DNA of 64,000 bases, taken from NCBI GenBank assembly GCA_048938855.1, contig JBHLLT010000004.1, forward strand, positions 121,497 through 185,496, in the 5' to 3' direction. Origin of the DNA: Promethearchaeota archaeon (GTDB taxonomy: Archaea; Asgardarchaeota; Lokiarchaeia; Sigyniarchaeales; SOKP01). How positions within the stretch are numbered: the stretch's first letter is position 1; each line of letters starts with the position of its first letter. Of the stretch, positions 1,729 to 62,378 are shown piece by piece. Under the pieces are notes generated by a model. The model was not told the DNA's origin and made no database searches. It was given only the letters and a program-made list of their open reading frames with translations. The translations under genes were made by a program, and so were the position numbers.

Positions 1729-1811
1729 TCTTATCCCTTTTTTTTACAAAAATTTTACCTAAAATATCATCTAACAAATATTTATATCTATCTCATTCAT
1801 AGCGAAGGTTT

Positions 1812-1821
1812 AAAAAAAAAA
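1812..1821 (-). terminator. oligo-T terminator after SECIS-1
   Basis: 10 consecutive T on minus strand directly 3' of the element. Confidence 0.55.
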
Positions 1822-1886
1822 CTGAATCCCTCACAGGGATAATCATCCAATAACTACCATTTTTTTATTGGAATCATTTTTTCAAG
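1822..1886 (-). promoter_or_regulatory. SECIS element 1 (eukaryote-type core)
   Basis: RNA CUUGAA-AAA-AUGAU-UCCAAUAA-AAAAAUGGUAG-UUAUUGGA-UGAU-U-AUCCC-UGUGA-GGGAU-UCAG, starting right after the stop of a TGA-containing ORF. Confidence 0.85.
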
Positions 1887-1887
1887 T

Positions 1888-2091
1888 TTAAGATAAATCT
1901 ATTCTGTGAAAGAGGCTTACGTATAAAACGATCAAAACAATTGCAGTTAATAAAAAGATCACTGAAGCTATAAGATAATTAACATAAAAACCTCACGCCC
2001 CCGATTCAAGATAACAAGCTATAGATGTTATTACTGATCCTATTATGGCTACAAGAATTATTGCTTTCTTTAAGTTTTCATTCAACAGCAT
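1888..2091 (-). CDS. putative small 2-TM selenoprotein 1 (67 aa, TGA at 1993-1995)
   Basis: MLLNENLKKAIILVAIIGSVITSIACYLESGA-U-GFYVNYLIASVIFLLTAIVLIVLYVSLFHRIDLS; frame stays open and hydrophobic after TGA; SECIS follows. Confidence 0.8.
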
Positions 2092-2204
2092 CACTTTTTT
2101 CTGTTTGAGAGTTTGTTTTAATCAAATATTAATTCGATTAAATATAAAAAATTTGACTATGAAATAATCGCAAGTAGAAATATTAAAAAGGAAAAATAAA
2201 AGTA

Positions 2205-2603
2205 TTATTCATTTAGAAGAATTTTTAATCCTTGAATAAGTTCTTGAGGAGTTACTCCATATAAAAGTGCCTGATGCATCATTTTAATGTTTATATCAAT
2301 TAGAGAATCTAAGTCTTTTCCCGGTTGAAATTTCACCATTAGTTTCTTGATAATTTTATATACTGAGAATTTATTTTGCTTTAATTTCCCAAAATAGCCT
2401 CCATATGCCAAGAAGAGGTTTGCCATGAGTTCAAGGTCTTCTTGTGAGTTATTTTTATAACACTCTTCGCATACCACTCCAAAACTAAGTCCTTCCTGAT
2501 ATATTGAAGCTCCTCGTTTGATTTCATTTCTACAAATCCCACATTTTATCACATCACGAGATAAATGGGTGGTCGGTTCTATATTAATTGAATTGATTTC
2601 CAT
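2205..2603 (-). CDS. zinc-finger hypothetical protein
   Basis: CGIC...CEEC pair; island promoter motif at 2625-2639. Confidence 0.75.
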   Translation of the reverse strand: MEINSINIEPTTHLSRDVIKCGICRNEIKRGASIYQEGLSFGVVCEECYKNNSQEDLELMANLFLAYGGYFGKLKQNKFSVYKIIKKLMVKFQPGKDLDSLIDINIKMMHQALLYGVTPQELIQGLKILLNE

Positions 2604-2737
2604 AATATTCTTTAATACTAGGTATATTTAAAGAAAAAAGGGTAGAAAATAGTTTGATAAATGTATATAAAACCCGAACTATTTTCACATTTGATGTCTA
2701 AATATTAAAATAAAATAATGATTTTAGCAAAATATTA

Positions 2738-2803
2738 CCAAAATCCTGGGCGAGGATAATCATCCAATAACTACCATTTTTTTATTGGAATCATTTTTCT
2801 TGG
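2738..2803 (-). promoter_or_regulatory. SECIS element 2
   Basis: CCAAG-AAAA-AUGAU-UCCAAUAA-AAAAAUGGUAG-UUAUUGGA-UGAU-U-AUCCU-CGCCC-AGGAU-UUUGG. Confidence 0.85.
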
Positions 2804-2818
2804 ATTTAAACCTGAATT

Positions 2819-3034
2819 TTACTTATTCGATTTTCTTTTATCTTCTATGTATAACATTCTGATTACACCGAGTAACACACAAGCAATTATGAAACTAGCA
2901 AACATCACATATGGAGGAAATAATAAATAACTACCTCAAGCTGAAAGCATCGACATCACTAACATGCTAATACCAAAAATTATGAAAATAAAAGAAACAA
3001 CACCTAAAATTCCTTTAACTACTGCATTTGACAT
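2819..3034 (-). CDS. putative small 2-TM selenoprotein 2 (71 aa, TGA at 2936-2938)
   Basis: MSNAVVKGILGVVSFIFIIFGISMLVMSMLSA-U-GSYLLFPPYVMFASFIIACVLLGVIRMLYIEDKRKSNK. Confidence 0.8.
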
Positions 3035-3097
3035 AAAAATCATTCTATTTTGTTATTCACTTATCCTGAATTTTAAAATCGTTTAGATCTTTAATCT

Positions 3098-3307
3098 TTA
3101 TTTATTTTGTATTAATGGGAGCACAATATATATTACAATTGATACTATTGCAATGCTATCACTAATTATCGCGGGTATTGTGAGATATCTTATATTTCAT
3201 GATAAAACAGGGTAATAGTACGGGGAAAGTATATGTAAAACGACACCGATAACACCAAATATACATATAAGACTCAATAGAATTGTCTTGATTTTTTTAG
3301 TTTTCAT
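3098..3307 (-). CDS. putative small 2-TM selenoprotein 3 (69 aa, TGA at 3197-3199)
   Basis: MKTKKIKTILLSLICIFGVIGVVLHILSPYYYPVLS-U-NIRYLTIPAIISDSIAIVSIVIYIVLPLIQNK. Confidence 0.75.
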
Positions 3308-3432
3308 CTGAAATCTTTATTTTCTGGCATTTATATTTATTTTTGTATATTATTTTCACTAATCACTATTTTAAGTTTATTATCAAAAGTTCTATAATTT
3401 TGTATTAGTTGAAAGCTTACTTTGAATATTTC

Positions 3433-3497
3433 CCGAATCCCTCACAAGGATAATCATCCAATGACTATCATTTTTTCATTGGAATCATTTCTTTCGG
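3433..3497 (-). promoter_or_regulatory. SECIS element 3
   Basis: CCGAA-AGAA-AUGAU-UCCAAUGA-AAAAAUGAUAG-UCAUUGGA-UGAU-U-AUCCU-UGUGA-GGGAU-UCGG; A-U to G-C compensatory pair relative to copies 1 and 2. Confidence 0.85.
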
Positions 3498-3515
3498 TTT
3501 AAATTTGAGTAAGAT

Positions 3516-3740
3516 CTAGCCTCTTATATCTTCCACCACTAAAACTATTAATACAACAATATAGACCAATGCTAAAAAGAGGCCTATAATCACTGAATAA
3601 ACTGGATTTACTGATATTGTCCATGTTGTCGATGGAGCTCAAACAACAGTCATCATTGAGTCGATTATTGCTCTAAAAATGAAAAATAATGCACACATTA
3701 TTAGAACTACTTTGGTTGTCCACTTCAATTCAAATCTCAT
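3516..3740 (-). CDS. putative small 2-TM selenoprotein 4 (74 aa, TGA at 3639-3641)
   Basis: MRFELKWTTKVVLIMCALFFIFRAIIDSMMTVV-U-APSTTWTISVNPVYSVIIGLFLALVYIVVLIVLVVEDIRG; both Trp are TGG; GAGTGAG upstream. Confidence 0.8.
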
Positions 3741-3772
3741 TTTACTCACTCAACATATTAATCACAGAACAT

Positions 3773-3979
3773 TTATGTTCGTTTCGCTTTCCTAATATAA
3801 AGTATATATGCCACAACCAAGATTCCCGCAATTGAGAAGCTAATAATTGCTGGGATGGGCGTCTCTACTAGCAGATGTCCTCAAGCTAATATGTTATATC
3901 CAATTATTAATCCAACACCCATAACCAAGAAAACAACTATGAATGTGATTAAAAGCCCTTTAATTACATCCTTTCTCAT
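3773..3979 (-). CDS. putative small 2-TM selenoprotein 5 (68 aa, TGA at 3881-3883)
   Basis: MRKDVIKGLLITFIVVFLVMGVGLIIGYNILA-U-GHLLVETPIPAIISFSIAGILVVAYILYIRKAKRT; AAGTTTTATATA promoter-like site near 4031-4042. Confidence 0.8.
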
Positions 3980-4097
3980 TTTAATCATTAAATTTCTATT
4001 TAATTTATGACGATGAAAAAGAAAAATCATTATATAAAACTTGTTTAATAAAAGTTTGAAAATTTGGATTTGGTAAAAGCTGAAATAATTTTTTTAA

Positions 4098-26802: not shown

Positions 26803-28146
26803 ATGATCTCAGGAGAATTAATTTCAAATTCAGTAATATCTCTTAATGAATTATTTCCTAATTTCACAAATCAATTCATTATACCATTTGAAAAGGTAGT
26901 AGAACTAGATATCCATAATGGGATGCATCTAAATTTTAAACTATGTGACAGAGATCAAAAAAACAAAGTACCTCCTATTTTACGCTTAGCTAACATAGAA
27001 GATGCAGAGGAAATTGTTGGGATTTACAAGGAATTATATAATTGTACATATCCATACAAAGAAATGGAAGATATTAATGAAGTCCAAAAGATGATACAAA
27101 ATCCATCATTTAAATGGATAATTTATCAAGACGCTTCTTTTAAAATTGCAGGTTGTATAACTTTTGTCTTAGATTTTAACAATAGAAGAGGTTACATTCG
27201 GGGATTTATGCTTAAAAAGGAATATCAAGGATATATTGATATAACAAAAGCGATGATCGGCTCGATGTTATGCATGATCCATAGTTTTAAAGATCGAATA
27301 TTTAATTGGTATGTAGAAAACAGAACTGCTCATGCAAAATCCCAATATTCAATGTATGTATGTGGAATTGCCCCGATAGGATTTTATCCAAATAAAGATA
27401 TTTTTGAGGGAAAAGTCGAATCTGATTTAATGCAAATTTTGTATGATGAGAAAGCATTGCGTCAGTATAGATCTCCAAAAATACCTACATTAATTCATGC
27501 TGTTGAGGGATGTTATTTATTTTCTCATAAACGGTATAATTTAGGTAACTATAAAATAAAATCCCCCAAAATCGTTCTTGATTACAAAAAAATAAAAGAA
27601 TTAAAAACCAATTTAAAAAGAAATATACAAAAAGATGATTTTGGGTATGAAACTATATTATTTTCATTTAAAAAAGCAAATTCTTATTTTCAATTTTTGT
27701 ACACGCCTACAGTTTCAAATTTTGAAAAAACTATCTATGAAGTTTCATCCTTAGAAGAATTATTTGTATTTGCCCAAGAATTTATGAGATGGAAAAAAAA
27801 ATTAAGGGCTCGCTATTGTGAAATATTTGTTTCAGCCTATCAACCTGAACATCAACAAATTTTTTATGACGCAGGATTGTCTCCTCGAGGATATATTCCC
27901 AGCTGGATTTTTAATAATGAAGATCATGTGTTCGAGGATTTTATTCTTTTTAATTGCCATGATGGACAAATTGGAGACAATATAGAGTTAATCCAAGAAG
28001 GGTGGGATCTACTTGATGTCTTTCATATTAAGAGCTCACAATCATTAGTAAATAGGGAAATGAAATCAATTAATTCTAACTGTAAAAAGATATTAGAGCT
28101 AAAAAGGAAAAAAACACACGTGGGTCTTAATTTAGGGGAATTCTAA
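26803..28146 (+). CDS. tandem GNAT-fold acetyltransferase
   Basis: LRLANIEDAEEI, KKEYQG acetyl-CoA motif, second GNAT-like half (QQIFYDAGLSPRGYIP). Confidence 0.7.
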   Translation: MISGELISNSVISLNELFPNFTNQFIIPFEKVVELDIHNGMHLNFKLCDRDQKNKVPPILRLANIEDAEEIVGIYKELYNCTYPYKEMEDINEVQKMIQNPSFKWIIYQDASFKIAGCITFVLDFNNRRGYIRGFMLKKEYQGYIDITKAMIGSMLCMIHSFKDRIFNWYVENRTAHAKSQYSMYVCGIAPIGFYPNKDIFEGKVESDLMQILYDEKALRQYRSPKIPTLIHAVEGCYLFSHKRYNLGNYKIKSPKIVLDYKKIKELKTNLKRNIQKDDFGYETILFSFKKANSYFQFLYTPTVSNFEKTIYEVSSLEELFVFAQEFMRWKKKLRARYCEIFVSAYQPEHQQIFYDAGLSPRGYIPSWIFNNEDHVFEDFILFNCHDGQIGDNIELIQEGWDLLDVFHIKSSQSLVNREMKSINSNCKKILELKRKKTHVGLNLGEF

Positions 28147-33961: not shown

Positions 33962-34051
33962 TACAAGGTTTTATCTGTGAACAGGAAATACACAAAATCT
34001 TAATTTTTTTGAAAATGTAAATTTTAAATTATACTATAAATTATAGAATTT

Positions 34052-34356
34052 GGGCACCTTGGGCAACGCCTGAATCCCCTTGCTGGGAGGACAACAAAAT
34101 GCTCATAGTTGAAATTGCCTGAATTAAGAATTCATGAGTGCTATTATCCAATCTTGTGTTCCGTCGAAGCACTCCCCATAATGGTAGGTATCAGAACAGT
34201 ACCTTTTGTAGGAAAGGTATAAGTCCCTAATTAGAAAACCGGACAGGTCCGGGAGGAAGCATCCGTAACTATAGGTATTTACGCTTTATGGTAAGGGTGT
34301 GGAGGGGCATGAGATCTTATGGTCATAATAGTAGGATTGATATCGAGGTTCAGGAC
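34052..34356 (+). ncRNA. ffs: signal recognition particle RNA (archaeal 7S)
   Basis: helix 8 motif CAGGTCC-GGGA-GGAAGCA (34244-34261), helix 6 hairpin around 34199-34220, ends pair (CCTGAATC/GGTTCAGG), ~300 nt, GC-enriched, T-rich 3' flank; 5' end approximate. Confidence 0.9.
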
Positions 34357-34424
34357 TTTCTAATTTTAATTATCTTTTCTTATTATGTTAATAGACTATA
34401 AATGGATTTTGAATAATTAATGAT

Positions 34425-57050: not shown

Positions 57051-58439
57051 TTGGAAAATTGGAAATCTTTAATAGAAAATAGAGAGTTAATTGTAAGTGT
57101 TGTAGGTATAGGGCGTATTGGATTACCTACAGCATTATTGATATCAAATGAAGGATTTAAAACATATGGGATTGATATTGATGAAAAATTAGTGGAAAAA
57201 GTAAACATAGGAGGAGGAAATCCTCCAATACCATACATAGTAGATGAACCAGAACTTGAAGATTTACTAAAAAAAGCTATATTAAATAATAAGTTGAAAG
57301 CAACAACAAAATTTAGAGAATTTGTTCCACTCTCGAATTTTATAATCATTTGCATTCCTACGCTCATAACAGAACAAAAAGTTCCAGACTATAGTGCCAT
57401 TAATGAAGTACTAAATCAAATAGGTTTGTTGAAAACGAAATTAGAAAGTAAAATTATTATCTTCGAATCCACAGTAGGTCCAAATTATATTGAAAAAGTA
57501 GCAATTCCATTTATTGAGCAAGTCTCAGAATTAAAAGTGAATAAAGATTTCTGGATAGCTTCTTGTCCTGAACGTGCGAATCCTGGAGATATTATAAAAA
57601 GTCTAACCACATTTACTCGAATTGTAGGTGCAAGCAATAAAGATACTCGCAATATTGTATCGAATTTTTATGAAACTGTTTTCAAAGTGGATATTTTTAA
57701 AGTTACTAATATCCGAACAGCAAATTCAGTTAAGCTTATAGAGAATATTTTCAGAGTTGTAAATATAGCATTTGCAAATGAAATTGGTCAATTAATGAGG
57801 AAATTAGACATTGATTATATGGAAGTGTTAAAAGGCGCAGCAACAAAGTATAATTTTTTATCCCATTTTCCTGGACCAGGTGTTGGAGGCCCTTGTCTCC
57901 CTAGTAATCCGTATTATCTTATTGATGATGGATATAAAGTCTCATTTACTCCAAATCTAGTGAGAGCTGCCACGGAAGTAAATCAACGACAACCCTTCCA
58001 TATAATCGAATTGATTTTTGAGGGTCTTAATAAAATAAATAAAACAATTGCAAATACAAAAATAGCGATATTAGGTATTAGTTATAAAGCAAATGTAAAA
58101 GATATTCAAATTTCTAGTGTTATACCTATTATAAGTGAATTGCAAAAGAATAAAGCGATAATAGGAATTTATGATCCCTACTACAAAGAAGAAGAAGCAT
58201 TAGGGTTTAAAATTGAAAGAAATTATGAATTTATAAAACAGGAATACCCCATGATTATTATTCACACTGATCATAATGAATTTAAATCAAAAAATTTTAG
58301 AGAGTTTCTTGGTGTTTGTGAGGATCTTGAAGTTATTGTAGATTGTCATAATACTTTTGAAGATGGAGAGATCCCTAACAATATTTATTATTTCGGGGTT
58401 GGGAGACCAATGAAATATATAAATAAGGAAAAAAGTTAG
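57051..58439 (+). CDS. nucleotide-sugar dehydrogenase (UDP-glucose/UDP-ManNAc family)
   Basis: GIGRIG, ESTV, CPER, KLIEN, GPGVGGPC, GISYK. Confidence 0.92.
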   Translation: MENWKSLIENRELIVSVVGIGRIGLPTALLISNEGFKTYGIDIDEKLVEKVNIGGGNPPIPYIVDEPELEDLLKKAILNNKLKATTKFREFVPLSNFIIICIPTLITEQKVPDYSAINEVLNQIGLLKTKLESKIIIFESTVGPNYIEKVAIPFIEQVSELKVNKDFWIASCPERANPGDIIKSLTTFTRIVGASNKDTRNIVSNFYETVFKVDIFKVTNIRTANSVKLIENIFRVVNIAFANEIGQLMRKLDIDYMEVLKGAATKYNFLSHFPGPGVGGPCLPSNPYYLIDDGYKVSFTPNLVRAATEVNQRQPFHIIELIFEGLNKINKTIANTKIAILGISYKANVKDIQISSVIPIISELQKNKAIIGIYDPYYKEEEALGFKIERNYEFIKQEYPMIIIHTDHNEFKSKNFREFLGVCEDLEVIVDCHNTFEDGEIPNNIYYFGVGRPMKYINKEKS

Positions 58440-58462
58440 AAAGATAATTGTTTTACTTTTAC

Positions 58463-58522
58463 CTCAGAATTCGTGCGGAATTCACTATTAAATCCTAACG
58501 TTTTTTGATTTAATTTGTTGAG
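58463..58522 (-). promoter_or_regulatory. SECIS-like element 4 (variant without AUGA/GA core)
   Basis: CUCA-ACAA-AUUAAAUC-AAAAAACGUUAG-GAUUUAAU-AGU-GAAUUC-CGCAC-GAAUUC-UGAG. Confidence 0.65.
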
Positions 58523-58530
58523 ATTTTTAA

Positions 58531-58668
58531 TTATTTTTTATTTTCTTCTGCTTCACTTAATTTAAGTAGTCTTTGCGCTCGTTTATACCACATATTTAAC
58601 ATGCCTCAACTTGTATTATAGCAATCATCATCAAACTCTAAATCTAGATAATCTTCTTTATCTTCCAT
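58531..58668 (-). CDS. putative soluble selenopeptide 6 (45 aa, TGA at 58606-58608)
   Basis: MEDKEDYLDLEFDDDCYNTS-U-GMLNMWYKRAQRLLKLSEAEENKK; AGGTGG SD; element 4 follows. Confidence 0.7.
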
Positions 58669-58815
58669 TATGTATAACCACCTAAATTCTATTTTTCTCA
58701 AAATAAAGAAAAGATATTAAAGTAGTGTTTATAAAAAATAAAACCTTAGATGAGAGCAAGAATATTTTATAAATACTTTTGGAGTTGTAATAATTTCCAA
58801 TAAAAGTGGATGAAT

Positions 58816-58882
58816 AATCTCAAATTCTTTGCGGAATTCATAAGAATAGATCCTAGCATTTAACGATCTTGTTCCTGAGATT
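58816..58882 (-). promoter_or_regulatory. SECIS-like element 5 (variant)
   Basis: AAUCUCA-GGAACAAGAUC-GUUAAAUGCUAG-GAUCUAUUCUU-AU-GAAUUC-CGCAAA-GAAUU-UGAGAUU. Confidence 0.65.
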
Positions 58883-59040
58883 TATTTATTTGATTTTTGT
58901 GTGTTTTTTTTCTGTCTTCTTTTTTTTATACCTCTTATACATGCCATTACACCATCAATGATACCTCAACCAGTACAATGAAGATCATCTTGGTATGAAA
59001 CTAAGACTTCCTTGTCCATTCTATTTTTCCATTCTGACAT
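58882..59040 (-). CDS. putative soluble selenopeptide 7 with CxxU motif (52 aa, TGA at 58966-58968)
   Basis: MSEWKNRMDKEVLVSYQDDLHCTG-U-GIIDGVMACIRGIKKRRQKKNTQKSNK; element 5 abuts the stop. Confidence 0.75.
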
Positions 59041-59189
59041 AGTTCTTATATTTTCTAGCTTTTATTAGAATAAAAAACAAGTAAGGAAATAAATATATTT
59101 TGATTATAGTTTTAAAGCACTTTACCATAAATTTTTAAAAACAAAATCTAACTTTTATTTAATTTACATATTTCAGAAAAGTGATTTAG

Positions 59190-59867
59190 ATGCTATTTCA
59201 ATATTGGACCGTAATCGAAGTTTTTTTTAATTGGGTTGCTGAATCTGCGGCAATAATGATGGTTTTAAGTGGGGCAATGGCTATTACTTGGTTTGGATAT
59301 GAAAGAAAACGCAGGGGATCTTTTACTAAAAGGAAGGCAGAAGTAGAAAAATTTGATGTAACTAAATTTTTAAGAGGAATGTCTTATTTAGGGCTTATAC
59401 TTGGTGTGTTTGTAATATGGAGTGGAGTAATGGGTTTAATTCTGGACATACCTCCCAGTTTTGCATATCGGGATGTAACTGAAAATGGAGCAAACCACTT
59501 CACATGTATATTTTTAATTGTGATTGGAATTGCTATGTTTTTTAAACCAATTTCAGATTTACCACTTTCTAGTATTCTTGGACTTTTGGGAGGTGCAGCA
59601 GCAGCAATCATTATCGCGCTTCTTGTTCCAGATGGTGTAGTTCAATGGATAGGTGGTTTTATCAATCCCAAATGGGTGCTTATGATAATTTTTATCATAG
59701 TCGCGGTAGTGGTGGGGCTGACTGCTAAATTTTATATAGGTACCCTTCAAAAAATATCAAAATTCCTATCTTGGCCACCAATTGCATTTATAATTATGGT
59801 TTTTTGTTTTGTCCAAGGATTCTGTTTATGGATTGGTGGATTTAGTATCTTTGCTAACCTTCTCTAA
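59190..59867 (+). CDS. polytopic membrane protein
   Basis: about 6 TM segments; GTGA SD. Confidence 0.8.
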   Translation: MLFQYWTVIEVFFNWVAESAAIMMVLSGAMAITWFGYERKRRGSFTKRKAEVEKFDVTKFLRGMSYLGLILGVFVIWSGVMGLILDIPPSFAYRDVTENGANHFTCIFLIVIGIAMFFKPISDLPLSSILGLLGGAAAAIIIALLVPDGVVQWIGGFINPKWVLMIIFIIVAVVVGLTAKFYIGTLQKISKFLSWPPIAFIIMVFCFVQGFCLWIGGFSIFANLL

Positions 59868-59982: not shown

Positions 59983-60261
59983 ATGGCGGGAATAAAAGAG
60001 TTAAAAGAAGAAGTTTCTGAAATGCGAAAAAGTATGGAACGTTTAACAGAAGAATTACACGAAACCAACCTATCGATTAGAGAATCGTTAGAGACTACCT
60101 CAGAGGCTATTAAAGAAGCAAGTCAAATATTTTCAAAAGCTTTAGAGGATGCAATGGCAAGAATGTCTGATTTAACAATTCAGATGAATATTAGAGACAC
60201 TATCTTAAAAAGTCTCGGTATTGATGGAATGATTCCTGATTTTCTTAAGAAAAAGAAATAA
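59983..60261 (+). CDS. small coiled-coil protein
   Basis: heptad pattern. Confidence 0.7.
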   Translation: MAGIKELKEEVSEMRKSMERLTEELHETNLSIRESLETTSEAIKEASQIFSKALEDAMARMSDLTIQMNIRDTILKSLGIDGMIPDFLKKKK

Positions 60262-60264
60262 AAT

Positions 60265-60459
60265 TTAGTGTTTTTGTTGTCCTTCCCATCTTTTGCTAAC
60301 AAAATATAGGATAACAAGTGATACAATATAGATTATTGTAATTAATGACCATAACAAAACTTCATTTAGATTGCTTTCAATTACTCCAATAATTGCTTTA
60401 TATATAAAAAATATGCTGACTAATGCTAGAAGTCGAAAAGCGGATTTTGTTTTATCCAT
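60265..60459 (-). CDS. small 2-TM membrane protein
   Basis: two hydrophobic helices, no TGA. Confidence 0.6.
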   Translation of the reverse strand: MDKTKSAFRLLALVSIFFIYKAIIGVIESNLNEVLLWSLITIIYIVSLVILYFVSKRWEGQQKH

Positions 60460-60556
60460 GTTTCTCTACCAATTTTTAATTAATATTTAAAATATTATAA
60501 TACTTAAAATTAAAAGTATAATATAGTATAATTATTAACTTAAACTAATTAAGAAA

Positions 60557-60760
60557 ATGTCGGAAAGGACACCCCCAATATGTTATAGTTGTGGCAAGAG
60601 TTGTGAGAATGAAATGGAAACAACTCATTATTGTATATGTGATATTGCTATTTGTCATGATTGTATTAATTCTGTAAAAAAAAATGAAAACACGTGGATT
60701 TGTCCCAATTGTAAAGAAGAAAACGATATCGAAAAAAGCTTACTGTTTCGACCCTCTTAA
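60557..60760 (+). CDS. small Cys-rich zinc-finger protein (RING/FYVE-like spacing)
   Basis: CYSC..CxC..CHDC..WICPNC. Confidence 0.75.
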   Translation: MSERTPPICYSCGKSCENEMETTHYCICDIAICHDCINSVKKNENTWICPNCKEENDIEKSLLFRPS

Positions 60761-60810
60761 TTAGATAAAGTGAAAATTTTTTGTAAAAACTGATTTACCT
60801 ACACGACGAT

Positions 60811-60878
60811 AAGCCTATGATGAAAAAACACCTTTTATAATGATTCATATATGATTAAATTGAGGAAGACTGAGGCTT
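60811..60878 (+). ncRNA. C/D box guide sRNA
   Basis: terminal stem AAGCCT/AGGCTT, C box ATGATGA (60817), D' ATGA, C' ATGATTA, D box CTGA (60870). Confidence 0.8.
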
Positions 60879-60968
60879 GATCACTAATATCATATCAAAA
60901 ACTTAGAAAACTAAATAAGTTTTCATTATTTTAGCTACTTAAGATAATGAGAAAATTAATAACACATT

Positions 60969-61460
60969 ATGCCAGATAATATTATCTCAAAAGTTGTCGA
61001 ATTGGATAATTGCAATAAAGACATACTCGTAGACTCAATATTTAAACCAGAATTTTGGATAATGGTAAATCCTGCAAAAACAATGCACGCAGAATTTACG
61101 GCCCCAAACGTGCTATATACTAAAATTACTGATGAAATCATCAATATTAAAATTCAAATGGAAGGGGAATTAGTACTACAAGATATGGGTGAACAAGAGG
61201 GAGGAAAAGGTCGATTAATTGAAATGAATGTTCGAAACAATAAGGATGTTAGAGAATTAGAAGGTAGAATGCGAATTAAAGCTCTTTCAAATACTAAATC
61301 AAAACTTGGGGTTTTTATTAATAGCTTTAAATTAGGCAGTGATTTTCTTAACTTAATTGGCAGAAACGCAGCTGAACTCACATTAAGAACAAAAATAACC
61401 GAGATGTTAAGAAATTTAGAGAAATATGTAAAATCAAAATCTTTAGAAAATTTAGTCTAA
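60969..61460 (+). CDS. hypothetical protein (possible SRPBCC/START-like fold)
   Basis: beta-rich core with long C-terminal helix. Confidence 0.65.
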   Translation: MPDNIISKVVELDNCNKDILVDSIFKPEFWIMVNPAKTMHAEFTAPNVLYTKITDEIINIKIQMEGELVLQDMGEQEGGKGRLIEMNVRNNKDVRELEGRMRIKALSNTKSKLGVFINSFKLGSDFLNLIGRNAAELTLRTKITEMLRNLEKYVKSKSLENLV

Positions 61461-61532
61461 TATCGATTTACTAGAAATTAATTAGTATAAATACAATACA
61501 TTAATTGAATAATTTAACACAAGGGTTAAAAA

Positions 61533-62378
61533 ATGAATATCTGGATTATGGAGAGTGACTCGGGTATAACTTTGGTTTATAAACCATATATGGATTTTCC
61601 GGTTAATGAAGATCTTGTTTCTGGGTTATTAACCGCATTAAACCAATTTACCATCGTAGAATTTAAACAAGGTATCGAATCCATTGAAATGGGTGGACTT
61701 AGGTGGGTATACATTATGGATAAGGATACAAACCTTTTATTTATAGGAGCAGATTCTAAGGATGTTACCGCAGAAATTTTACGAGCCCGACTTGACGTGA
61801 TTCGGCAAACTTTCATTTCACAATATGCTCATGAAGGAAATAAATGGGGTAGTAAATGGGCGGGAAATGTAGAGATCTATAAACCCTTTGAGAATATAAT
61901 TGATGAGTATTATACTCAATGGAAACAGGCAGAACGTATAACTACAGTTGCCGAATTTTTTGATTTTATAGGGATTTTCCAACAAATCTTAAATCTAATT
62001 ATTAATGTAATAGAAGCTCATCTATCTGGAAAGAAAAAGCAAATTATTTATCGTAAAATTGAAAAAATGTTTAGACAATATTCAAATCTAGAGATAGTCA
62101 AACAAAATCCTGAATTGAGAAAAATTACATTTGAAAGAAATGTTGGTTTCAATATTATTGGGATAGATCCAATGAATAGTGATATGTATCTCGTTGAAAA
62201 GCAATTAATAAATTTAATTAGAAAAATAGTAGAAATTTTTAAAACAGAAGAAGGTTACTTCGTCAGTTTAAAATATTTTATTGAAGAGAATATCTTTGAT
62301 TATTTATTATCAAACTTTAACCTCTTGAACGATTTAAATTTGTTCACATTCTTATTACAACTTTTTCTAATAAAGTAA
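61533..62378 (+). CDS. longin-like domain protein
   Basis: IWIMESDSGITL..DLVSGLLTALNQF..IESIEMG..LLFI pattern. Confidence 0.65.
   Translation: MNIWIMESDSGITLVYKPYMDFPVNEDLVSGLLTALNQFTIVEFKQGIESIEMGGLRWVYIMDKDTNLLFIGADSKDVTAEILRARLDVIRQTFISQYAHEGNKWGSKWAGNVEIYKPFENIIDEYYTQWKQAERITTVAEFFDFIGIFQQILNLIINVIEAHLSGKKKQIIYRKIEKMFRQYSNLEIVKQNPELRKITFERNVGFNIIGIDPMNSDMYLVEKQLINLIRKIVEIFKTEEGYFVSLKYFIEENIFDYLLSNFNLLNDLNLFTFLLQLFLIK

Follow-up and report, generated by a model that had tools for sequence, protein, structure and literature searches.

Two small minus-strand genes of a lokiarchaeal genome, here called A and B, are very likely genuine selenoprotein genes, and the structured element 3' of each, which lacks a kink-turn core, very likely provides the cis signal for the insertion of selenocysteine (Sec). 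We put the probability of this reading at roughly 0.85. It is based on comparative evidence, and no transcript, ribosome or proteomic data are available. A and B satisfy every computational criterion for selenoproteins, although Cys homologues are known for B only.

Both frames contain one TGA each and lie in the gap 58439-59190 between two plus-strand genes; coordinates refer to the window, i.e. the whole 64,000-nt stretch of DNA that was analysed. Each frame is followed by an element of ~65 nt with a three-way-junction fold, which starts directly after the stop codon of A and 6 nt past the stop codon of B. The initial annotation, made from the sequence alone, had described two tandem minus-strand ORFs of 45 and 52 codons in an apparently empty gap, each with its own structured element immediately 3'. 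Both claims held and the coordinates were confirmed; the elements, which had been left unidentified, correspond to a kink-turn-less SECIS variant. The features of the locus are:

59040 (ATG) to 58882 (TAA), minus strand: ORF A, 52 codons, with a conserved M-S-E-W-K N-terminus, a variable linker, C-T-G-U and a basic amphipathic helix
58968-58966, minus strand: in-frame TGA of ORF A (Sec25), codon 25, in the context D-D-L-H-C-T-G-U-G
58977-58975, minus strand: partner Cys22 of ORF A
58816..58881, minus strand: coreless SECIS A, with closing helix P1, P2 stem and side hairpin P3 (58839-58822)
58864-58853, minus strand: P2 loop of coreless SECIS A, 12 nt, AAA...AG
58668 (ATG) to 58531 (TAA), minus strand: ORF B, 45 codons, with an acidic arm with alternating hydrophobic residues, C-Y-x-x-x-U and a basic helix with M-W-Y-R
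58608-58606, minus strand: in-frame TGA of ORF B (Sec21), codon 21, in the context D-D-D-C-Y-N-T-S-U-G
58623-58621, minus strand: partner Cys16 of ORF B
58461..58524, minus strand: coreless SECIS B, with P1, a 9-bp P2 and side hairpin P3 (58483-58467); folding z = -2.99
58506-58495, minus strand: P2 loop of coreless SECIS B, 12 nt, AAA...AG
58725..58738, minus strand: TTTATAAA box, a conserved alignment block that may be the TATA element of a separate promoter of ORF B (role inferred)
58676..58683, minus strand: putative Shine-Dalgarno sequence of ORF B, GGTG(G/A)-type (inferred; conservation only partial)
59060..59097, minus strand: conserved AT-rich blocks 5' of ORF A, putative promoter elements common to the divergent gene (inferred)
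57051..58439, plus strand: flanking UDP-sugar dehydrogenase gene, convergent, outside the unit; synteny in 80/96 loci
59190..59867, plus strand: flanking divergent gene, outside the unit, coding for a 225-aa membrane protein that belongs to no known family

In the proposed scheme, each gene would normally be served by a separate promoter and a separate 3'-UTR SECIS. Pattern and BLAST searches of the 3.95-Mb source genome revealed no close second copy of A or B.

A conserved block 5' of A (window 59983-62378) encodes a 92-aa coiled coil and a 64-aa membrane protein, both syntenic in ~65/96 loci, a RING-like 67-aa protein with a zf-RING_4 match below cut-off, and a weak longin-like protein. Sub-threshold Rfam matches in the window include a possible C/D-box sRNA at 60809-60881 (plus strand; three weak overlapping matches) and an archaeal SRP RNA at 34038-34366 (plus strand; E 3e-14).

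Occurrence of A and B and the reading of their TGA codon

Loci homologous to A and B are mostly found in MAGs labelled Promethearchaeota/Promethearchaeia (= Lokiarchaeia). In the source genome, a tRNA-Sec was missed by ARAGORN and detected by the Rfam model (61 bits versus a cut-off of 47), and SepSecS (464 bits) and two SelD genes, with one in-frame TGA apiece, score above their cut-offs. EFSec-like and PSTK-like genes fall below the family cut-offs and are full or near full length. The known selenoproteins of this genome are four MvhD, HdrA and a Prx-like protein, with canonical lokiSECIS elements 3' of them. A pattern search of the source genome for the Sec-type VhuU motif ([D/E]-P-TGA-x-x-C-x-x-H) gave no result, possibly due to an assembly gap; the four MvhD are of the Sec type. 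TGA terminates 302 long ORFs of the source genome, and the genetic code itself is therefore unchanged.

Profile searches detected A in 105 and B in 63 of the 134 genomes of the family, without a credible match to either in other families or classes searched. B is nearly always accompanied by A, and A occurs without B in ~40 genomes. The observation goes well beyond chance: when DNA was searched without demanding an open frame, the stretch was recovered in most genomes of the same genus. In five genomes without A, a search of the syntenic site for diverged copies could not succeed because the neighbouring dehydrogenase was not found either, and the absence of A is therefore possibly the result of an assembly gap or of block loss. 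A second locus in another genome (G006:C1:190008-191482; L040) contains two extra B copies, each with an element, and an A-type element beside a masked or gapped stretch; we interpret this locus as a local duplication.

The codon at the Sec site of A is TGA in 95/95 copies, as it is in 23/23 metagenome copies. The corresponding codon of B is TGA in 59 of 63 copies and TGT (Cys) in the remaining 4, and never TAA, TAG or TGG. In 20/20 aligned loci of the same genus the TGA is invariant while flanking synonymous sites vary, and the genuine stop codons of both genes and of three out of four neighbours alternate among TAA, TAG and TGA. These copy counts are not independent, because the genomes are related. 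No natural copy of A with Cys at this site turned up in the genomes, metagenomes and database proteins searched. Database copies of A or B with Trp at the Sec site are miscalls resulting from gene calling with TGA=W; one of them, P0011, is the same as a TGA-bearing ORF (L008). Reading of TGA as Trp was rejected on the basis of these miscalled copies and of the codon pattern, which consists of TGA and TGT only.

A lack of conservation past the TGA and independent initiation at an ATG two codons after the TGA of B had been named in the initial annotation as findings that would refute the reading; neither applies. The 15 codons 3' of the TGA are under purifying selection, with pN/pS of 0.33 in A and 0.23 in B, similar to 0.35 (A) and 0.20 (B) on its 5' side. 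In shifted frames, pN/pS reaches 1.0-1.5 and stops interrupt 83-96% of the copies; in-frame openness was partly a selection criterion for HMM-found copies. The region past the TGA is thus conserved as protein. The ATG is present in only 37/63 B copies (8/95 in A) and the TGT versions of B run straight through the site, which excludes an independent start. The sequence TGAGG was also considered as a Shine-Dalgarno for re-initiation and was rejected, as the bases 3' of the TGA vary. As the first step of the proposed mechanism, the ribosome would read through the UGA and Sec from tRNA-Sec would be inserted via EFSec. This step has strong comparative support and is almost certain; the presence of Sec in the protein is inferred.

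The 3' element and its missing kink-turn core

The structure of the A/B element consists of the closing helix P1, a 10-bp P2 and a 6-bp P3. In 46 copies, 93% of cells are paired and 15 of the 21 pairs show compensatory changes; this pairing was matched by 0/500 shuffles, and slid controls reached 24-58%. P2, with 9-10 bp, is 94.6% paired and has compensatory changes in 8/10 pairs. Its loop of 11-12 nt contains an invariant AAA and an invariant G, and ends in AG in 133/144 elements (78/86 A, 55/58 B); the loop of the P3 side hairpin is GCAA/GUGA/GCC-type. When one test was used for all elements, the AUGA/GA kink-turn core ([A/G]UGA 5' of the stem and GA/AA 3' of it) was found in none of 86 A and none of 58 B elements and in 1/50 Prx-like ones, versus 8/10 canonical ones. 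The canonical SECIS of the source genome, those of SelD included, also combine a closing helix with a side hairpin on the 3' side. Therefore, both types are built on a common scaffold and differ in the core. Loops of 12 nt occur in canonical copies too, and the A/B elements adjoin selenoprotein stop codons as lokiSECIS does. Rfam contains no family that matches at the A/B element coordinates, and the GAA/A bulge between G-C clamps of euryarchaeal SECIS is absent from the covariation-supported structure.

One element was found in 40/41 genomes with A only, two or more in 50/50 genomes with A and Sec-containing B, and one in 3/4 genomes that combine A with a Cys version of B. Where A and B are ~20 nt apart, a single shared element is located 3' of B (3/3 scored). 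The Sec-to-Cys switch of B occurred in four separate lineages: three Cys lineages are closer to Sec copies than to one another or to the fourth, which is a clade of three genomes with Cys (support 0.99), with identities of 0.60-0.70 between the Cys lineages. The underlying tree was calculated from an alignment of ~95 nt and has mixed support. After the switch, the B element is gone in two lineages and decayed in one. In the youngest lineage, which is 91% identical to Sec copies, it is recognisable and contains two pair-breaking substitutions. The element of A is intact in all B Cys lineages. These repeated switches, coinciding with element loss, provide evolutionary evidence that the coreless junction works.

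Since model R1 was trained on A/B elements only, its matches on them arise partly by construction. Its next-best match in the source genome (E 0.007) is located in a 3' UTR, starting at the stop codon of an AhpC/TSA protein with U-P-x-C, a paralogue that belongs to the Sec-containing Prx-like set deposited by Huang 2024. The Prx-like TGA is conserved in ~90 genomes of the class. A coreless junction is present 3' of Prx-like genes across Lokiarchaeia, among them a complete genome (G055) and GC-rich lineages in which the sequence has turned over fully, and also in three families of other Asgard classes. A TGA-free Prx-like paralogue does not have it, and in a few Prx-like 3' UTRs, L307, L308 and L312 among them, no clear element was seen within ~100 nt. 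A core-agnostic descriptor, written post hoc when the data had already been seen, identified 14 sites in the source genome, of which 10 are directly behind TGA-containing ORFs. In the second step of the proposed mechanism, the coreless element would act as the cis signal for Sec insertion. Support for this step is strong and we consider it very likely. If the element is the signal, then the determinants common to the Asgard SECIS examined are the apical loop and the junction scaffold, and not the kink-turn.

Other TGA-containing genes were observed in addition. The minus strand of the window at ~1800-4000 contains at least four small two-helix hydrophobic ORFs with one in-frame TGA each, and three canonical lokiSECIS 3' of these ORFs, each with a side hairpin and a closing helix; it corresponds to the first locus of the initial annotation. 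In the source genome (G000), a Prx-like selenoprotein (U-P-F-C) with a coreless SECIS, conserved in several Asgard classes, is located at G000:C10:11024-11571 (L199). Two tandem SelD genes that contain Sec (G000:C34:253707-255755) each carry a type II SECIS, again with a closing helix and with a side hairpin whose loop is GCAA/GCAC. Near 27732 on the minus strand of G000:C66 there is a hidden hydrophobic ORF of 70 aa that contains G-S-C-G-U-G-G and is accompanied by a canonical three-armed SECIS. On the plus strand of G000:C49 near 285288, a 158-aa frame contains a tandem TGA-TGA (H-A-D-U-U) and is followed by a SECIS-like hairpin with the core present and a 12-nt spacing from the stop. Prx-like paralogues with two in-frame TGAs (U-x-x-U) occur as L069-type and at other loci (G069:C130, G188:C4, G197:C4, G212:C16).

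Properties of the peptides, possible function and rival explanations

A Cys residue upstream of Sec is present in 95/95 A and 63/63 B copies. Its distance to Sec in A varies (CxxU in 82, Cx3U in 1, Cx4U in 6 and Cx7U in 6 copies), and the spacing in B is 4. The residue after Sec is G56/S12/A11/V6/N5/I5 in A and S30/G21/N7/D4/A1 in B. The motifs CxxU-G and Cx4U-G proposed in the initial annotation thus held only in part. The N-terminal half, claimed to be acidic in both peptides, is strongly so in B only (mean net charge -7.8 versus -1.3 in A). The basic helix after the TGA held: its net charge is +7 (A) and +5 (B), and it is amphipathic in both, with hydrophobic moments of 0.59 versus 0.30 for shuffled sequences (A) and 0.46 versus 0.32 (B). 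An extra Cys is present in this helix in 45/95 A copies. The claimed solubility is an inference only, and the amphipathic C-terminal helix could bind a membrane; the redox role suggested by the motif is plausible and has not been shown. The statement that no family is recognisable held, as searches of Pfam, NCBIfam and ESM Atlas features gave no usable match. AF2 models were poor (pTM 0.36 and 0.38) and were used for helix position only; with low confidence, they place the Sec of A at the start of the C-terminal helix and the Sec of B inside a long helix. Prediction of an A-B complex, with the Trp-miscalled A and the Cys version of B as inputs, gave a score of 0.00, which has no evidential weight either way. 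A and B may or may not be paralogues: they have the same layout and similar elements, and hhalign aligned them on Sec (probability 21.7%, E 0.001).

The third step of the proposed mechanism concerns function and is inferred. Sec at or near the start of the basic amphipathic helix, which would dock on a membrane or a partner, and the upstream Cys on a flexible arm may close a selenenylsulfide ring after oxidation, and the peptides could thus act as peroxide or oxygen scavengers or as a redox relay in an anaerobe. Such a helix-anchored Cys/Sec redox switch is the likeliest of the functions considered, but we would not rate it above an even chance, and function has not been shown.

Several alternative explanations have to be considered. 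A and B could be metal or Fe-S chelators, in which the genes and SECIS remain as described and each peptide contributes a half-knuckle, so that both together offer two Cys and two Sec for Zn, Fe or Hg. This is supported by the resemblance of C-T-G-U-G to the C-x-x-C-G knuckle of ferredoxin and rubredoxin (weak tblastn matches, C-K-G-C-G-I motifs), by the extra helix Cys in A and by the adjacency of A and B, which are sometimes on one transcript. However, spacings of 2, 3, 4 or 7 and the variable residue after Sec fit a rigid knuckle poorly, the ferredoxin pattern C-x2-C-x2-C-x3-C-P is absent, and A frequently occurs without B, which makes chelation unlikely. It is somewhat less likely still that A and B serve as selenium-status sensors or sinks, which would be completed only if Sec-tRNA is available and would then act through the helix on a partner or store Se. 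Their minimal size, with one Sec per ~50 residues in stand-alone units, and the docking-like conserved ends (M-S-E-W-K; the acidic hydrophobic arm; M-W-Y-R), which hint at partners, favour this idea. Against it, the four Cys lineages of B have lost Se dependence and kept thiol chemistry, no copy lacks the upstream Cys, and Se-metabolism genes are not among the neighbours. As the Cys is always kept but loosely spaced and Sec-to-Cys exchange is tolerated, a reversible ring on a flexible arm is a better fit than either a rigid metal knuckle or a mere Se sensor. A function as RiPP precursors with a leader and a Sec core, like the 'selenobiotic' peptides associated with radical SAM enzymes, is very unlikely. 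Size, the acidic leader-like N-terminal half of B and the presence of a radical SAM gene at a distance of ~5 kb would agree with it, but there is no NCBIfam match, the radical SAM gene is not adjacent, and no modifying enzyme, peptidase or exporter is nearby. More generally, the conserved neighbours of A and B include no maturase, transporter, redox enzyme, peptidase or exporter, none of them hints at a function, and the flanking genes are on the opposite strand.

Two further alternatives question the reading of the TGA or the role of the element. The TGA could be a true stop, yielding a 20-24 aa peptide followed by re-initiation, or be read as Trp. This would account for the frequent ATG two codons after the TGA in B and for the W in database copies. 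It is all but excluded, since the W stems from TGA=W gene calling, long ORFs of the same genome end in TGA, the TGA is never replaced by TAA in a 30%-GC lineage and is substituted solely by TGT, and the Cys orthologues had already largely refuted it. Alternatively, the TGA could be read through and the 3' element be a stability or termination structure, with Sec inserted via another signal. The element indeed fails the published core criterion and is largely kept in one Cys lineage. Nevertheless, this possibility is very unlikely, because the element is otherwise lost with the switch to Cys, is common to both genes in bicistronic pairs, has the loop of canonical lokiSECIS, recurs behind TGA-containing ORFs at most descriptor sites, and is present behind Sec-containing Prx-like genes and not behind the TGA-free paralogue.

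A bolder version of this reading has, in our view, slightly less than an even chance of being correct. It holds that Asgard archaea can do without the kink-turn core and that the three-way junction is the working SECIS, which would present the AAA...AG loop and the side hairpin to a still unknown reader other than SBP2 and would serve a hidden layer of tiny selenoproteins, namely A, B and several membrane peptides in the source genome. If this were true, the eukaryotic SECIS would correspond to one arm of the junction, and the core would have become essential only once SBP2 arose. The case for an Asgard-to-eukaryote SECIS transition rests on the AUGA/GA core. The evolutionary evidence from the Sec-to-Cys switches narrows the likely recognition surface to the apical loop and the side hairpin, which is directly testable. 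The coreless element may also account for some of the Asgard selenoprotein genes (~15%) for which no SECIS was found (PMC11227280), and a core-agnostic search offers a route to further hidden selenoproteins. A is present in ~80% of the genomes of a large family of sediment archaea and yet is unannotated or miscalled with Trp. Both the list of selenoproteins and the model of the Asgard SECIS signal therefore appear incomplete.

Comparison with known systems

The published Asgard selenoproteome comprises seven families, SelD, FrhA/MvhA/VhuU, HdrA, FrhD/MvhD, Prx-like, an AhpF-N homologue and DsbA-like (PMC11227280; review PMC13188914), to which A and B would add two. A and B share with these proteins the in-frame UGA, the Sec/Cys pairs, a Cys-x-Sec redox-type motif and the host lineage. 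In contrast, they match none of the families, are only 45-57 aa long, contain neither a thioredoxin fold nor an enzyme domain and were found in a single family of Promethearchaeia. The published surveys relied on homology to known families or on Cys homologues, and A and B were therefore hard to detect. In the literature searched, of which coverage is incomplete, we found no description of the A/B peptides or of a three-way-junction SECIS in Asgard archaea.

VhuU, the ~50-aa Sec subunit of a NiFeSe hydrogenase, resembles A and B in size, in its single Sec and in its occurrence in Asgard archaea (PMC11291895). However, it carries U-x-x-C near the C-terminus and has hydrogenase genes nearby, whereas in A and B the Cys precedes a mid-chain Sec and no hydrogenase is among the neighbours. 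Compared with thioredoxin-fold CxxU selenoproteins (SelW/Rdx-like), A and B are too short, predicted to be all-helical and variable in spacing, and lack a Pfam match; they differ from selenobiotic-type RiPP precursors by the absence of a family HMM match and of an adjacent radical SAM maturase. SELENOK and SELENOS are small, largely disordered eukaryotic selenoproteins without a thioredoxin fold; both contain a transmembrane helix and carry Sec at the C-terminus, and SELENOS forms a Cys-Sec ring. They have no sequence relationship to A and B, and the resemblance is an analogy only.

The methanococcal (euryarchaeal) SECIS is likewise located in the 3' UTR, has no known binding protein and contains conserved adenines as likely contacts (Peiter et al. 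2025, PMC11881835). It differs from the A/B elements in architecture and by its GAA/A bulge, which is flanked by G-C clamps. The reader of SECIS elements in archaea has yet to be identified, as they lack SBP2 and their EFSec showed no binding to SECIS (PMC4989117, PMC11881835). A lokiarchaeal SECIS was non-functional in M. maripaludis (PMC11881835).

The closest relative is lokiSECIS (Mariotti et al. 2016, PMC4989117), which equals the Asgard eSECIS-like type I (Huang, Xiao & Zhang 2024, PMC11227280). LokiSECIS is characterised by an 11-nt apical loop that begins with adenines on the 5' side and ends in G, which in most cases follows an A (PMC4989117), and both studies treat AUGA before the stem and GA/AA after it as the core. 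The bearing sections of the two papers do not describe a side hairpin or a closing helix. The A/B elements are alike in their position at or just after the stop, in their ~9-bp stem and in their loop of 11-12 nt with 5' adenines and a terminal AG, and tandem A and B genes can share one element, as hdrA and vhuD do with lokiSECIS. Unlike lokiSECIS, they have AUGA before and GA/AA after the stem in 0/144 cases, and their stem rises straight from the three-way junction. The A/B element thus seems to work like lokiSECIS but lacks its defining core, and we therefore class it as a variant of lokiSECIS rather than as a member.
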